A stretch of DNA of 64,000 nucleotides from contig JACPZW010000062.1 in the NCBI GenBank assembly GCA_016195265.1, positions 9,904 through 73,903 on the forward strand. The letters are read 5' to 3'. Every line of letters starts with the position of its first letter. The first letter of the stretch is position 1. Below the pieces are notes generated by a model. That model searched no databases, had not been told where the DNA came from, and saw only the letters and a list, made by a program, of their open reading frames with translations. The translations under genes and the position numbers were made by a program. Shown piece by piece: positions 20,279 to 27,745 of this stretch. This DNA is from Acidobacteriota bacterium (GTDB lineage Bacteria > Acidobacteriota > Vicinamibacteria > Vicinamibacterales > CAVVIG01).

Positions 20279-21280
20279 ATGGACGGCGCCCGATCGCTTT
20301 CGTTCGACGATGCCGCGCGGCTGGCGGCGCGGCTGCGCGAGGAAATGGGGCGCGCGATCATCGGCCAGCAGGGCGTCGTCCAGGAGATCCTCACCGCGTT
20401 CTTCGCCGGCGGGCACGTTCTGCTGCGCGGCGTGCCCGGTCTCGCGAAGACGCTGCTGATCAAGACGCTCGCGCAGGCCGTGCACCTGAAGTTCAGCCGC
20501 ATCCAGTTCACGCCCGATCTGATGCCGTCGGACATCATCGGCACGGAAGTCATCGAAGAAGATCGCGCGACCGGCCACCGGACGATCCGGTTCATTCACG
20601 GGCCGGTGTTCGCGAACGTGATCCTCGCGGACGAGATCAACCGCACGCCGCCCAAGACGCAGGCCGCGCTGCTCGAGGCGATGCAGGAGTATCAGGTGAC
20701 GGTGAACGGCGTGCGCTATGCGCTCGACCGGCCGCTCTTCGTCCTCGCGACGCAGAATCCAATCGAACAGGAGGGCACGTATCCGCTGCCGGAAGCCCAG
20801 CTCGACCGCTTCATGTTCAACGTCGTCATCGAGTACCCCTCGCCGGTGGAGGAGCACCGCATCCTCGCGTCCACGACGACGGACGAAGAACCGGTCATCA
20901 CGCCGGTCGCGACGGCCGCGGAGGTCGAGGCGATGCGGCATCTCGTACGGGACGTGCCGGCGGCGTCCAACGTCATCGACTACGCGCTGCGAATCGTGCG
21001 CGCGAGCCGGCCGGCAGGCGGCGCCGCCGACGGCGTGCCCGAGAGCGTGCGACAGTTCGTGAAATGGGGCGCGGGTCCGCGCGCGGGTCAGGCGCTCGTG
21101 CTCGGCGCGAAGGCGCGCGCGCTGGTCGACGGACGCAGCGTCGCGTCGCCGGACGATATCCGCGCGGTCGCGCCGCCGGTGCTGCGGCATCGGATCCTGC
21201 TGAACTTCCAGGCGGAAGCCGACGGCGTCGACGCCGATCAGATCGTCGGCCGCCTGCTCGAAGCGGTCCCCGCCCCGTGA
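20279..21280 (+). CDS. MoxR-family AAA+ ATPase
   Basis: Walker A GVPGLAKT, Walker B ILADEINR, and the PEAQLDRF motif. Confidence 0.9.
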   Translation: MDGARSLSFDDAARLAARLREEMGRAIIGQQGVVQEILTAFFAGGHVLLRGVPGLAKTLLIKTLAQAVHLKFSRIQFTPDLMPSDIIGTEVIEEDRATGHRTIRFIHGPVFANVILADEINRTPPKTQAALLEAMQEYQVTVNGVRYALDRPLFVLATQNPIEQEGTYPLPEAQLDRFMFNVVIEYPSPVEEHRILASTTTDEEPVITPVATAAEVEAMRHLVRDVPAASNVIDYALRIVRASRPAGGAADGVPESVRQFVKWGAGPRAGQALVLGAKARALVDGRSVASPDDIRAVAPPVLRHRILLNFQAEADGVDADQIVGRLLEAVPAP

Positions 21281-22278
21281 AAAACGTCACGACGACCGCG
21301 GCCGCCGCGAGCGCCCTCGACCCCGCGCTGCTCGCCCGCATCGCCGACCTCGAGCTGGTCGCGCGAATCATCGTCGAAGGTCTCGTCTCCGGCCTGCATC
21401 GCAGTCCGTTTCACGGCTACAGCGCCGAGTTCAGCCAGTACCGGCACTACCGGCCCGGCGACGATCTCAAGTACGTCGACTGGAAGCTGGCGGCGCGGAC
21501 CGATCGCTTCTACACGAAACAGTTCCGCGAGACGACGAACATGGCGGCGACGCTCGTCGTGGACACGAGCGCATCGATGGACTTTCCGTACGTAGGCCGG
21601 GTCCTTTCGGACCCGGCACGACTCACAAAGTTTCGCTATGCCGTTCTCGCCTCCGCCGCGCTCGCACATTTGATCTCGAGGCAGGGCGACGCCGTCGGAC
21701 TCGTCGCCGCCGGCGGACGTTTCATCCCGCCGCGCACCGGGCGCCAGCACCTGCGCGGGCTGCTCGCCGCGCTGGGCGATCTTGGCGGGTCCAGACCGCC
21801 TTCGCCAAGGCTACGGTGGTCCGCCGAAGCTTTACGCGGAGGCGGAAGGACCCGCCCCACGGAATCCGGCCCCCTCGCGTGGGACGGCACGGAGACCATC
21901 CGCCGCGCGGCCGATCGCATGACCCGCCGCGGCCTGCTGCTCGTGCTCTCGGACTTCTACGACGACGAGGAACGCGCGTTCGCGGAGTTGCGGCGGGCGG
22001 CGCGGATGGGACACGAGGTCGTGCTGTTCCAGATCCTGAGCCGTGACGAGATCGAGTTTCCCTACAAGAGCGATTTCGAGTTCACGGATCTCGAGACCGG
22101 ACGGTCGGTCGCCGTCAACGCCGCCGTCGCCCGACGCAAGTACAGAGATGAAGTGGCGGCGTTTCTCGAACGCTGGCGCAGCCGCGCCGGCGCAGAGGGC
22201 TTTCAGTATTCGCTGATCGTCACGGACACGCCAATTGAGCGCTCGCTTCGAAGTGTTCTGCTCGCACGGGGAAATTAG
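21277..22278 (+). CDS. DUF58 domain protein (MoxR partner)
   Basis: GTGA overlap with moxR. Contains YRPGDDLKYVDWKLAARTDRFYTKQFRE. Carries two repeat-derived in-frame inserts. Confidence 0.8.
   Translation: MKNVTTTAAAASALDPALLARIADLELVARIIVEGLVSGLHRSPFHGYSAEFSQYRHYRPGDDLKYVDWKLAARTDRFYTKQFRETTNMAATLVVDTSASMDFPYVGRVLSDPARLTKFRYAVLASAALAHLISRQGDAVGLVAAGGRFIPPRTGRQHLRGLLAALGDLGGSRPPSPRLRWSAEALRGGGRTRPTESGPLAWDGTETIRRAADRMTRRGLLLVLSDFYDDEERAFAELRRAARMGHEVVLFQILSRDEIEFPYKSDFEFTDLETGRSVAVNAAVARRKYRDEVAAFLERWRSRAGAEGFQYSLIVTDTPIERSLRSVLLARGN
21588..21617. repeat. REP-like element, family A, inside a CDS
   Basis: TACGTAGGCCGGGTCCTTTCGGACCCGGC is read as YVGRVLSDPA. Confidence 0.8.
21784..21856. repeat. 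Palindromic element, family D, inside a CDS
   Basis: GGCGGGTCC...GGCTACGGTGGTCCGCCGAAGC...GGACCCGCC. A related copy in reverse orientation lies at 56416-56458. Confidence 0.6.
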
Positions 22279-25679: not shown

Positions 25680-27745
25680 CTCGTCTGGTTCCGCGCGCGA
25701 TTGCCATCGCCATCGCCGTCGCCGGCCTGGTCGATCCCGCGATCACTCTGTCCGGCTCAACACGCGCGCGCCTGGCGATTGTCCAGCTGGATCCGGCGGG
25801 TCCAAAAGGACCCGCCCTACATGCCACCGCTGACCCGGCGGGTCCAAAAGGACCCGCCCTACATGCCACTGCTGACCCGGCGGGTTCAAAAGGACCCGCC
25901 CTACATGCCACCGCTGACCCGGCGGGTCCAGGTGATGCCGCCACTCGAGCCCGAGATCGGCTCTCGCGTGACCTTAGCTCGTCGTTCGAGATCGTTCCGC
26001 AGATCACGTCGGATGCGGCAGCCGCGATCGTGGTCGGCGACCGGTATCCACGCGAGTCCGTTCCCGATGCGCTGCGCGTCGCGACCGTGACGACGGCACC
26101 GGCGGCCATCGGCGTGCCCTTTGTCAAGATTGTCAGGATCGACGCGCCGCCTGAGGTTCCGCCTGGCACCGCGATCCATATCGTGGCCGAGATCGAGGGC
26201 TCCGGCGTCGCCGGCCGGACAAGCGACGTGCGCGTCTCGATCGCCGGGATTGACATGGGCCGCGCGTCGCACGTGTGGACGGCGGCGCGCGAGCGATGGC
26301 GCGCATCATTCGACGCCGTTCCGGTCGGCGATCCGCCGTACGTCGTCCGCGTTGCTGGCGACGACGTCCGCGCGGTGGTGGTCGACGCACGCCGCCGGCC
26401 CTTGCGCGTCGAGGTCTACGAGCCGCGGCCGTCGTGGGCGTCCACGTTCGTGCGCCGGGCGCTCGAGGCCGACCCGCGCTTTCAGGTCGCGAGCGTCAGC
26501 GTGACGTCGCGCGGGATCGCGTCCCGCGCGGGTGACGCCGTGTCGCTCGCCGATCCCCGGCTCGACGCCTCCGACGTCGTCGTGATCGGCGGCCTGGATC
26601 GGCTGACCGCCGCGGACGCCCGGGCCCTCGATCGCGTCATGCGTGAGCGCGGCGGCGCTGTCGTGCTCCTTCCGGATGCGCGCCTCGACGCCGGTCCGGC
26701 GCGCGATCTGATCCCCGTCGAGTTGAAGGAGCGATTGCTGGAGCGCCCGACGAAGCTCGCGACGAGGGCGCCGTCGCCCCCGTTCGAGGCGTCGGAGTTG
26801 TTGGTTCCAGATCCGCGGTACGTAGGGCGGGTCCTTTCGGACGCGCCTGATCAGGATCCGCGATACGTAGGGCGGGTCCTTTCGGACCCGCCTGATCAGC
26901 CGGGTCCGAAAGGACCCGGCCTACAAATCGGGACTCTTTTGGACCCGCCTGATCAGCCGGGTCCGAAAGGACCCGGCCTACAAATCGGGACTCGACTGCC
27001 GGGTCCGAAAGGACCCGGCCTACTCGACACGATCGCGAGCACTCGACCCGCCCAGCAGATCATTGCGAGCACGACCGGCGACGATGCCGCGCCGGTCGTC
27101 GTGTCGGTCCCGCGCGGCTACGGGCGGCTCGTGTGGTCCGGCGCGATGGACGCGTGGCGCTTCCGCGCGAACGACGATGGCGCGTTCGATCGGTTCTGGC
27201 AGTCGACGATTGCCGGGCTTGCGCTGCAGGCGCCCGCGCCGATCGATGTGCGCGTCGAGCCTTCGTTTCTCGAGCCGCGCGAGACCGGCGACGTCATCGT
27301 CCGCCTCCGATCGCGCCCCGTGGGCGACGCCCCGCCTGTCAGCGCGGCGGTTGACGGCACACCGATCCGGCTGCGGCCCGATCCTGAAGCCGGCGTTTTC
27401 AGAAGCACGTTCATCGCGCGCGACACGCCCGGCCTTTCGCGCGTCGACGTTCGCGTCGACGGCACGAGTCCGCAGTCCGCGTCCGCGACAATCGTCGTCG
27501 AGAACGACGCGCATCGCGTCGATCCCGGACTACGCGCGGCGCTCTCGATGCTCGCGACGTCGCACGGCGGCATCGACGTCACGCCCGATCGCATCGACGC
27601 GATCGAGCGGTGGGCAAGCGCGACGGTCGCCGCCCCGACGACAACCGTCCGCCGATATCCGATGCGGTCGGCCTGGTGGATCGCTCCGTTCGCCGCCTGT
27701 TTGGCGGGTGAGTGGTGGATGCGCCGCCGCGCTGGACAGCGCTGA
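25676..27745 (+). CDS. Large hypothetical protein with N- and C-terminal membrane anchors, last gene of the Bat-like operon
   Basis: ATGA overlap with the upstream gene. Transmembrane segments at both ends. Contains two REP arrays read in frame. Confidence 0.6.
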   Translation: MTRLVPRAIAIAIAVAGLVDPAITLSGSTRARLAIVQLDPAGPKGPALHATADPAGPKGPALHATADPAGSKGPALHATADPAGPGDAATRARDRLSRDLSSSFEIVPQITSDAAAAIVVGDRYPRESVPDALRVATVTTAPAAIGVPFVKIVRIDAPPEVPPGTAIHIVAEIEGSGVAGRTSDVRVSIAGIDMGRASHVWTAARERWRASFDAVPVGDPPYVVRVAGDDVRAVVVDARRRPLRVEVYEPRPSWASTFVRRALEADPRFQVASVSVTSRGIASRAGDAVSLADPRLDASDVVVIGGLDRLTAADARALDRVMRERGGAVVLLPDARLDAGPARDLIPVELKERLLERPTKLATRAPSPPFEASELLVPDPRYVGRVLSDAPDQDPRYVGRVLSDPPDQPGPKGPGLQIGTLLDPPDQPGPKGPGLQIGTRLPGPKGPGLLDTIASTRPAQQIIASTTGDDAAPVVVSVPRGYGRLVWSGAMDAWRFRANDDGAFDRFWQSTIAGLALQAPAPIDVRVEPSFLEPRETGDVIVRLRSRPVGDAPPVSAAVDGTPIRLRPDPEAGVFRSTFIARDTPGLSRVDVRVDGTSPQSASATIVVENDAHRVDPGLRAALSMLATSHGGIDVTPDRIDAIERWASATVAAPTTTVRRYPMRSAWWIAPFAACLAGEWWMRRRAGQR
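25793..25929. repeat. Three tandem 42-bp units, each containing a family A REP, plus a partial fourth
   Basis: CCGGCGGGTCCAAAAGGACCCGCCCTACATGCCACCGCTGAC occurs three times, with 1-2 substitutions in the second and third units. It is read as DPAGPKGPALHATA x3. Confidence 0.9.
26819..27023. repeat. Array of five full and one partial family A REP copies in both orientations, inside a CDS
   Basis: Forward copies at 26819-26847 and 26865-92. Reverse copies at 26899-26936, 26956-26993 and 26999-27023. Read as YVGRVLSD.. and QPGPKGPGLQIG.. Confidence 0.9.

Follow-up and report, generated by a model that had tools for sequence, protein, structure and literature searches.

GTAG-tagged REP elements lying in frame within the partner genes of an acidobacterial MoxR operon

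Introduction

How do palindromic repeats that are by name extragenic come to lie inside the genes of an operon, and what do the genes make of them? The question is raised by a 64-kilobase (kb) stretch of an Acidobacteriota genome (contig JACPZW010000062.1; the whole stretch is called the window below), in which a gene for a MoxR-type ATPase is followed by four partner genes that carry repetitive extragenic palindromic (REP) elements. An earlier interpretation of this DNA, made without database searches (the sequence-only reading), held that every gene of the operon except moxR contains REP elements in frame. Hairpin scanning and the operons of related organisms bear this out. Below we describe the elements and the sites that they occupy, the evidence that the host genes are real and the inserts secondary, the extent of the phenomenon beyond the operon, and the explanations that can be offered for it.

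Results

REP families of the window

The entire window was scanned for GTAGG followed by a hairpin. The scan yielded 20 copies, every one beginning with GTAGG: 16 belong to one family (REP-A; consensus GTAGG[GC]CGGGTCCTTYYGGACCCG[GC]C) and four to another (REP-B; consensus GTAGGGGC[CG]GA[GC]CTTG...GCCCC). With a third, decayed one, GTAG-headed REP hairpins of the window fall into at least three families. The REP-A core, GGGTCCNNNNGGACCC, occurs 16 times, against 0.32 occurrences expected by chance from shuffled sequences, and exact REP-A matches were found on at least 120 metagenome contigs. Each unit forms a G+C stem of 8-9 base-pairs with a loop of 4 nucleotides (nt). Single units fold at -15.7 to -20.1 kcal/mol, compared with about -8 kcal/mol for shuffles (z-scores -3 to -5). 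Three pairs are arranged tail to tail with spacers of 5-6 nt (15767/15798, 17739/17771 and 26867/26899). Outside the operon, identical copies form intergenic dimers and clusters, the classical REP locations. By sequence, structure, copy number and dimer arrangement, the elements are GTAG-tagged REPs; the CGTC tag of Rickettsia-type REPs is absent, the units carrying GTAG. No Rfam family matched within the window.

GTAG-tagged REPs are characteristically extragenic for the most part. This trait does not hold in the window, where 13 of the 20 copies are in-frame parts of open reading frames (ORFs). Eleven of them are inside the four partner genes, all in the frame of the gene. Together with several decayed copies, these 11 intact ones are distributed over seven sites (Table 1).

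REP elements in four genes of the operon

A Pfam profile search identified five consecutive plus-strand genes at 20279-27745, whose products agree with the composition already proposed: MoxR ATPase, DUF58 protein, BatA-N-domain protein and two large membrane proteins, the first of these DUF4175-like and the second (p5) matching no Pfam family. The third protein has BatA_N at residues 1-76 plus TIGR02226; no VWA domain was detected in it with Pfam and NCBIfam profiles. Overlap of start and stop codons had been claimed throughout. It is seen at three of the four junctions (GTGA between MoxR and DUF58, an 11-nt overlap, and ATGA), the exception being DUF58-BatA, where the genes are separated by an 88-nt AT-rich gap. 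A search of the Protein Data Bank with the p5 fold returned weak multidomain matches only (OST48-like, and Ig-like or associated with glycoside hydrolases; TM-scores 0.2-0.36), and no function was assigned from them. A look-up of the p5 protein itself returned no record. The hairpin scan found no REP copy in the MoxR gene.

Table 1. Genes of the operon, REP sites within them, and REP elements elsewhere in the window
Feature	Position	Strand	Evidence
MoxR-type AAA+ ATPase gene	20279..21280	+	Pfam AAA_3 5e-63 plus AAA_lid_2
DUF58 (VWA-fold) gene, two REP-derived inserts	21277..22278	+	Pfam DUF58 2e-41
BatA-N (double-transmembrane N-terminal domain) gene	22367..23635	+	Pfam BatA 8e-11; TIGR02226
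DUF4175-like membrane protein gene	23625..25679	+	Pfam DUF4175 2.5e-15; ortholog alignment
p5, fifth gene: membrane-anchored multidomain protein, 689 aa	25676..27745	+	375 homologs; alignments; AlphaFold 2 model
DUF58 site 1: REP-A read as VGRVLSDP, loop right after MIDAS motif DTSASM	21592..21617	+	scan, codon alignment
DUF58 site 2: reverse REP-A (GGS...GRTRPTES), loop split by 51-nt palindromic GTAG element	21784..21860	-	codon alignment
BatA-N site: REP-B copy GTAGGGGCGGAGCTTGCTCCGCCC read as VGAELAPP	23252..23275	+	scan, codon alignment
DUF4175 site: REP-A read as (G)RPGPFGPG	23890..23915	+	scan, codon alignment
DUF4175 C-terminus: decayed third-family hairpin GTCCGGCTCCAGCCGGAC, read as ASGSSRT	25640..25657	+	codon alignment
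p5 site 1: tandem array of 3.3 REP-A copies in reverse orientation (period 42 nt), translated as (DPAGPKGPALHATA)x3	25793..25930	-	scan
p5 site 2: REPIN-like array, 2 forward + 3 reverse REP-A + half copy, about 70 residues	26810..27023	.	scan; periods 45 and 57 nt
REP-A in frame (RRAGSFGPA) in putative membrane-protein ORF 7107-7712	7435..7460	+	flanking GC3 0.80 and 0.87
Intergenic REP-B inverted pair	12397..12450	.	hairpin scan
Intergenic REP-A cluster, three copies, between convergent genes	15767..15860	.	hairpin scan
Intergenic REP-A tail-to-tail dimer (REPIN-like), between convergent genes	17739..17796	.	hairpin scan
REP-B in frame in acidobacterial VWFA-domain gene 38723-40888	39062..39086	+	TIGR03436 match spans residues 48-424

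Operons of relatives were recovered from other assemblies (loci L081, L083, L084 and L205 to L208) and aligned with the window codon by codon. When MoxR was used as query of genome contigs, only loci of 67% identity or less, from many phyla, were returned. The six sites listed in the sequence-only reading were all found again; their edges required refinement, and the hairpin of the third family near the DUF4175 C-terminus had been overlooked. The ortholog alignment that had been proposed as a check revealed presence/absence polymorphism at codon resolution. DUF58 site 1, for instance, is empty in L083 and holds another hairpin, GTCCGGCTTCAGCCGGAC, in L081 and L084. At DUF58 site 2, whose composite element folds at -54 kcal/mol, L084 has a plain reverse REP-A (GSKRTRPTE) and L081 and L083 have nothing. 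The REP-B of the BatA-N gene is shared by the window, L083 and L205 and is absent in L081 and L084, which are also empty at the DUF4175 REP-A site; the L083 copy at the latter site carries the 51-nt element in its loop. L083 further preserves the intact form, GTAGTGTCCGGCTTCAGCCGGACC (VVSGFSRT), of the DUF4175 C-terminal hairpin, which is absent in L084. A decayed REP copy of L083 reads GCAG in place of GTAG.

The largest inserts are those of p5, about 115 of whose 689 residues are REP-derived. At site 1, each of the eight close orthologs has REP-A at one and the same position, and more distant ones lack it; the window has expanded the single copy to 3.3 tandem units. At site 2, a dimer resembling the REP doublets that form hairpins (REPINs) is ancestral to the same ortholog clade. 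It has decayed in L081, is internally deleted in L205, and is expanded to five and a half units in the window, where a 136-nt part folds at -103 kcal/mol. The tandem periods of 42, 45 and 57 nt are all multiples of three, the copy numbers being those of a metagenome assembly. Peptides expected across insert junctions in the predicted products include ...SELLVPDPRYVGR and GPKGPGLQIG.

The 51-nt element of DUF58 site 2 is a GTAG-containing palindrome lying at 21794-21844, within the loop of the reverse REP-A. A search with blastn located a second copy at L083 8181-8231, in the DUF4175 REP-A loop, where it is placed and oriented as in the window. The peptide that it encodes also appears in a third REP-A loop, that of protein P0083. 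The palindrome is either a loop-targeting element or a long-loop subfamily of REP-A.

Host genes and secondary origin of the inserts

Two observations could have undone the interpretation of the sites as in-frame inserts: ORFs called wrongly, with the REPs lying between shorter genes, or the same peptide segments in homologs free of REPs. Neither was made. Domains and full-length homologs span the inserts, the ratios of nonsynonymous to synonymous substitution rates (dN/dS) of the four host genes are 0.19-0.34, and more distant homologs do not have the segments. Orthologs that are 78-85% identical do without some of the inserts, the boundaries being resolved at the codon level. The DUF58 profile match extends over residues 54-294, against profile positions 1-211, with about 30 extra residues, and spans both inserts; the protein is 333 residues long compared with a typical 288-300 among more than 3400 homologs. 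Similarly, 375 homologs of p5 align full-length and measure about 570-590 residues, against 689 here.

Comparison with three syntenic relatives gave dN/dS values of 0.07-0.09 for MoxR, 0.19-0.20 for DUF58, 0.30-0.34 for BatA-N, 0.19-0.23 for DUF4175 and 0.22-0.26 for p5. All five genes are under purifying selection. G+C content at third codon positions (GC3) in the p5 frame is about 0.85 and drops to about 0.52 across both insert regions.

Mapping of the inserts on AlphaFold 2 (AF2) models, likewise proposed earlier, placed them in segments where the predicted local distance difference test (pLDDT) score is below 50. The p5 model (alignment of 116 sequences, mean pLDDT 81.8) has exactly two such segments, residues 44-77 and 386-455, both within the insert regions. 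In the DUF58 model the VWA core scores about 90, and residues 108-111 and 174-199, corresponding to the two inserts, score below 50; prediction is poor for the N-terminal 86 residues too. The models thus support the view that the insert products form disordered loops. A query with a 75-residue REP-encoded peptide found no homolog at E <= 0.001, and a search of protein representatives returned only the window protein. Against 10^9 library sequences, no peptide so short and so low in complexity can attain significance, and breadth was therefore estimated from DNA.

Reading frames

Five of the six combinations of frame and orientation of REP-A are free of stops; the sixth reads G-TAG as a stop. 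Of the open frames, the operon employs four (VGRVLSDP, RPGPFGPG, PGPKGPGL and G(S)xRTRPT), the fourth being that of DUF58 site 2 (GGRTRPTES). The TAG frame is in use as well: the GTAG head of the REP-B at 12397-12400 provides the stop codon of a Glu/Gln-tRNA synthetase gene (10700-12400). The 5' flank of this copy, GACGAC, is identical to the flank of the in-frame REP-B in the BatA-N gene.

That only stop-free frames are observed had been taken as a sign of selection on insertion frame. For an intact ORF the observation is a tautology. All five open frames occur in the survey of related contigs described below, so frame selection reduces to the exclusion of the stop frame plus the requirement for a multiple of three. 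As to the suggestion of tolerated Gly/Pro-rich loops, disordered loops are what the models indicate, but not all of them are rich in Gly and Pro (VGRVLSDP, GSERTRPT).

In-frame REPs beyond the operon

Two further intragenic copies are present in the window (Table 1), one in the VWFA-domain gene and the other in ORF 7107-7712, a probable gene that has no family match. Occurrence elsewhere was surveyed in 80 soil-metagenome contigs with exact REP-A matches, from many related organisms, which contained 76 assessable clusters. A cluster was classified as in frame when the frame ran on without interruption and GC3 was of the coding type to either side, a conservative rule that still misses the array at 25795. 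Twelve of the 76 clusters are in frame and jointly use all five open frames. Since the remaining 64 are not in frame within ORFs, the REP-A family is mostly extragenic, unlike what is seen in the window. A check of ten host ORFs found Pfam domains in nine, and the domain extends across the insert in almost every one of these. Hosts include ABC-2 permeases, a Ser/Thr kinase, GlgE, GDPD, an M1 peptidase, a polysaccharide-synthesis protein and an enoyl-CoA hydratase; the GlgE inserts of two contigs are both inside the N/S domain, apparently at the same site. In-frame REPs are not special to this operon, though they are concentrated there. Five of the ten REP clusters of the window fall in the 10% of its length occupied by the partner genes (binomial P = 0.0017), and REP-A clusters are more often in frame in the window (5 of 7) than in the survey contigs (12 of 76; Fisher P = 0.003).

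Some of the same positions recur in wider sets of homologs. Inserts in the post-MIDAS loop (next to the metal ion-dependent adhesion site) are present in 35 of 120 DUF58 homologs, many of them visibly REP-derived, and in p5 homologs the hot spots of insertion number at least seven, with peptides of palindrome type, for example KPDTTE/VVSGFSRT, SGSVRLQ, LPAEVLAKAG and LPGPKGPGL.

Origin of the inserts and alternative explanations

The explanation that we consider very likely is that ordinary GTAG REP or REPIN elements landed in coding DNA, were filtered by selection and are read as loops. By analogy with other systems, the elements would be short, non-autonomous palindromic repeats mobilised in trans by a REP-associated tyrosine transposase (RAYT, or TnpA-REP) encoded elsewhere. 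Among insertions into coding DNA, the survivors of purifying selection would be the ones that lengthen the gene by a multiple of three bases, do not use the frame in which the GTAG head reads as a TAG stop, and sit in surface loops or interdomain linkers. Such inserts would be read as disordered, largely unconstrained and presumably neutral peptide loops; they could then grow, 42, 45 or 57 nt at a time, through slippage or unequal recombination, gain nested palindromes in their hairpin loops, and decay slowly. The partner proteins are loop-rich, faster-evolving envelope proteins, so that inserts could build up in them, with the compact, strongly constrained MoxR remaining free of them. The local density may in that case be a consequence of tolerance.

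Several points weigh against parts of this account. Translation of the inserts in frame is deduced from the intact frames and their conservation. The mobilising enzyme has to be assumed, as no RAYT turned up either in the window or in the related loci, some 2.4 Mb in all: there is no Y1_Tnp domain among the ten window ORFs adjoining REP clusters (a single-copy gene is unlikely to fall in about 1% of a genome), none among the called genes of L081 to L084, and no match to an approximate E. coli RAYT query in a tblastn search of those 2.4 Mb. A PIN-domain gene at 15953-16432, beside the REP-A cluster at 15767-15860, was considered as a RAYT candidate and rejected. Tolerance may not by itself account for the density, which recurs in L081 and L084, whose operons contain hairpins of at least six GTAG-type families and whose flanks contain none. 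In addition, a neighbouring TonB-dependent-type receptor gene has a dN/dS of 0.19, like DUF58 and DUF4175, yet holds no REP, and therefore room is left for a landing-site preference or for a role at the nucleic-acid level. Finally, the stems of the p5 site-1 hairpin are paired in seven of eight orthologs at a synonymous divergence (dS) of about 0.5, which may mean constraint on the hairpin rather than neutrality.

A landing preference, for existing REP hairpins or for some local DNA feature that would turn the locus into a sink, is a possible but tentative explanation of the density. The same loops receive different families in different lineages (at DUF58 site 1, REP-A, the GTCCGGCTTCAGCCGGAC hairpin, or nothing), the 51-nt palindrome recurs identically placed in two REP-A loops with its peptide in P0083 besides, and the clusters are crowded into the partner genes as described above. 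The insertion sequences IS1397 and ISKpn1 are known to target the loops of REP hairpins. Yet the seven sites are spread across four genes and have no single nucleus, no shared target motif is evident in the 5' flanks, and repeated use of one loop would follow just as well from selection for permissive sites. Such a preference is moreover compatible with selective survival of REP insertions and does not exclude it.

The hairpins might alternatively be kept for a role as nucleic acid, the peptide being a by-product; they could affect mRNA stability or processing, act as translational pause sites tuning the stoichiometry of an operon that is translationally coupled and has hardly any intergenic DNA, or serve as DNA sites for gyrase or the nucleoid. 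We regard this as rather unlikely. Very stable structures do lie in coding sequence (-19 to -20 kcal/mol for single units, besides the DUF58 composite and the p5 array), the literature ascribes roles in mRNA stability and translation to REPs, and enrichment in the operon, not in its flanks, recurs in relatives with other REP families. The p5 site-1 hairpin stands at one place in eight orthologs, varies mostly in its loop codon, and shows a T:A to C:G double change in L205 and L208. However, both changes are from AT to GC at third positions, as amelioration of GC3 predicts, and a double change would be expected from that process about half the time. Synonymous divergence at third positions is about equal in the REP codons (44/157) and gene-wide (3840/11764), so there is no excess conservation. 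There is a mismatch in L207, and decayed or deleted copies in L207, L081 and L205; most sites are polymorphic among close relatives and so dispensable.

Quite unlikely, too, is a scheme in which the operon is a conserved REP sink, its hairpins kept, or repeatedly replaced by whichever family is active in the lineage, for their action on the polycistronic mRNA or the DNA of a tightly coupled operon, with REP loops serving as specific landing sites for the 51-nt element. If true, selfish hairpins would have been recruited throughout a lineage, at specific sites within coding sequence, as regulatory structures.

Artefact, whether from mis-called ORFs or from errors of metagenome assembly, is very improbable. 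The window apparently derives from a metagenome-assembled contig, and tandem copy number can be misassembled. Still, homologs align full-length on either side of every insert, the DUF58 and TIGR03436 profile matches span inserts, AF2 domains continue across them, REPs stand at these sites in independent assemblies of other samples as well, and the 42-57 nt repeat units are shorter than typical reads; as regards the presence of the inserts, artefact is already refuted. The reverse direction, with ancestral peptide segments giving rise to the intergenic REPs, is hardly credible: the DUF58-clade consensus at site 1 (FPVAGRSADPPVSKF) faintly resembles VGRVLSDP, but more distant homologs have no such segments, the presence/absence pattern contradicts it, unrelated genes and intergenic dimers contain the same 26-mer, and the inserts have a non-coding-like GC3.

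Other features of the window

A second, unrelated class of intergenic repeats occurs at 27741-27850, 22275-22366, 33080-33160 and 60770-60895, and a single arm lies at 28883-28950. The class consists of long hairpins, richer in AT, in which degenerate units of about 8 nt form inverted arrays, the unit differing from locus to locus (TACCCAAC, GAATTGAG, GAGGATKT). Folding energies range from -25 to -64 kcal/mol and z-scores from -3.8 to -10. Across an amidohydrolase gene, the arm at 27810-27854 pairs with 28883-28927 as well. Directly downstream of p5, at the position corresponding to 27745-27853, three relatives have a minus-strand gene of 267-272 residues without Pfam match (L081 11715-12518, L083 11886-12692, L084 11781-12599); this gene is absent from the window, which has only the octamer-array hairpin there.

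A gene for a TonB-dependent-type outer-membrane barrel at 12461-15742 (OMP_b-brl_4, positions 1-409 and 427-832) is interrupted by a single in-frame TAG at 14468-14470. The split gene may be a pseudogene, the result of a sequencing error, or a case of stop readthrough. A purine-rich motif, CCACGGAGGACACGGAGGACACGGAG, is repeated at 1042-1085, 35506-35549, 38711-38754 and 58429-58472; the copy at 38711 lies just upstream of the probable start of the VWFA-domain gene, which suggests a shared leader or ribosome-binding region. Lastly, the segment 53943-57002, the most G+C-rich part of the window, contains three direct-repeat pairs of 127-146 nt with 71-75% identity, spaced by about 2.2-2.4 kb. 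They point to a tandem pair of large paralogous genes on the minus strand (ORFs 52837-55638 and 54843-57515).

Discussion

For annotators, the locus is a warning: in these soil Acidobacteriota, over 10% of a protein can consist of repeats that are called "extragenic". REP segments inflate protein length, create spurious low-complexity "motifs" (VGRVLSDP, PGPKGPGL, VVSGFSRT), and can mislead homology clustering and structure prediction. The filled and empty sites, resolved to the codon, and the reuse of loops also provide a system for measuring how proteins absorb selfish DNA, and for asking if REP hairpins in coding sequence affect translation or mRNA decay.

The host operon resembles the Bacteroides-type Bat or MoxR-DUF58-VWA operons in its order, MoxR (AAA_3), DUF58, BatA_N protein and large membrane proteins, and in its translational coupling. 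It departs from them in that the BatA-like protein has the N-terminal double-transmembrane domain alone, with VWA undetected, and in that the last two genes encode a DUF4175-like protein and a member of an uncharacterised family, no TPR gene of the BatC/D type having been detected. As with IS1397 and ISKpn1, a second element sits at a fixed position in a REP hairpin loop; the nested element here, however, is a 51-nt palindrome without coding capacity, and the composite stays in frame in a gene.

REPINs are described as almost exclusively extragenic and tied to a single-copy RAYT gene flanked by REPs (Bertels & Rainey 2011, PMC3116915; Nunvar et al. 2010, PMC2817692). The elements described here share with them the inverted doublets of about 58 nt (17739-17796 and 26867-26924), able to fold into a long hairpin, and the many near-identical copies; they differ in being partly intragenic. 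No RAYT was found in the sequence examined. Rickettsia palindromic elements (Ogata et al. 2000, as cited in PMC3733652) are similar in being palindromic repeats that lie in frame within functional genes and are translated as extra surface segments. As described there, they are longer (RPE-1, about 100-150 bp), are tagged with CGTC and not GTAG, and belong to an obligate intracellular alphaproteobacterium in which selection is less efficient.

The closest precedent is the work of Di Nocera, De Gregorio & Rocco 2013 (PMC3733652), who described GTAG- and CGTC-tagged REPs wholly within ORFs of several species; numbers are highest in Opitutus terrae and Rickettsia conorii, and most of the GTAG type are in O. 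terrae. Over half of those intragenic units form dimers or groups encoding 20-30 residues; clusters encode 43-82 residues, and double inserts in one gene occur. GTAG donates TAG stops, and different REPs are found near the same site in orthologous Xanthomonas recB genes. The inserts were suggested to be neutral, as lying in linkers or loops. That paper mentions the acidobacterium Koribacter in connection with repeats of the TIR type, and our literature search found no account of in-frame REPs for Acidobacteriota. The claim of novelty made in the sequence-only reading does not survive this precedent: in-frame REPs have been known since 2013, so the established picture is unchanged. The likeness is extensive, taking in the GTAG head, the short G+C hairpin, the occurrence within ORFs as singles, dimers and clusters, the clusters coding for tens of residues, two inserts in one gene, a GTAG-supplied stop, and different REPs at one orthologous site. 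Set apart from it are the host, a member of the Acidobacteriota and probably of the Vicinamibacterales, as judged by the names that homologs bear and, for the phylum, by the TIGR03436 gene of the window; the presence of 13 of the 20 copies of a 64-kb window inside genes, with seven sites in four consecutive genes of one operon; the second palindrome nested in REP loops; and the addition of codon-level filled and empty sites and of structure models. The operon is a further example of a phenomenon already described in other bacteria, at an unusual density. Besides the density, what stands out in it is that different REP families have reused the same loops in relatives, and that a 51-nt palindrome is nested in REP loops.

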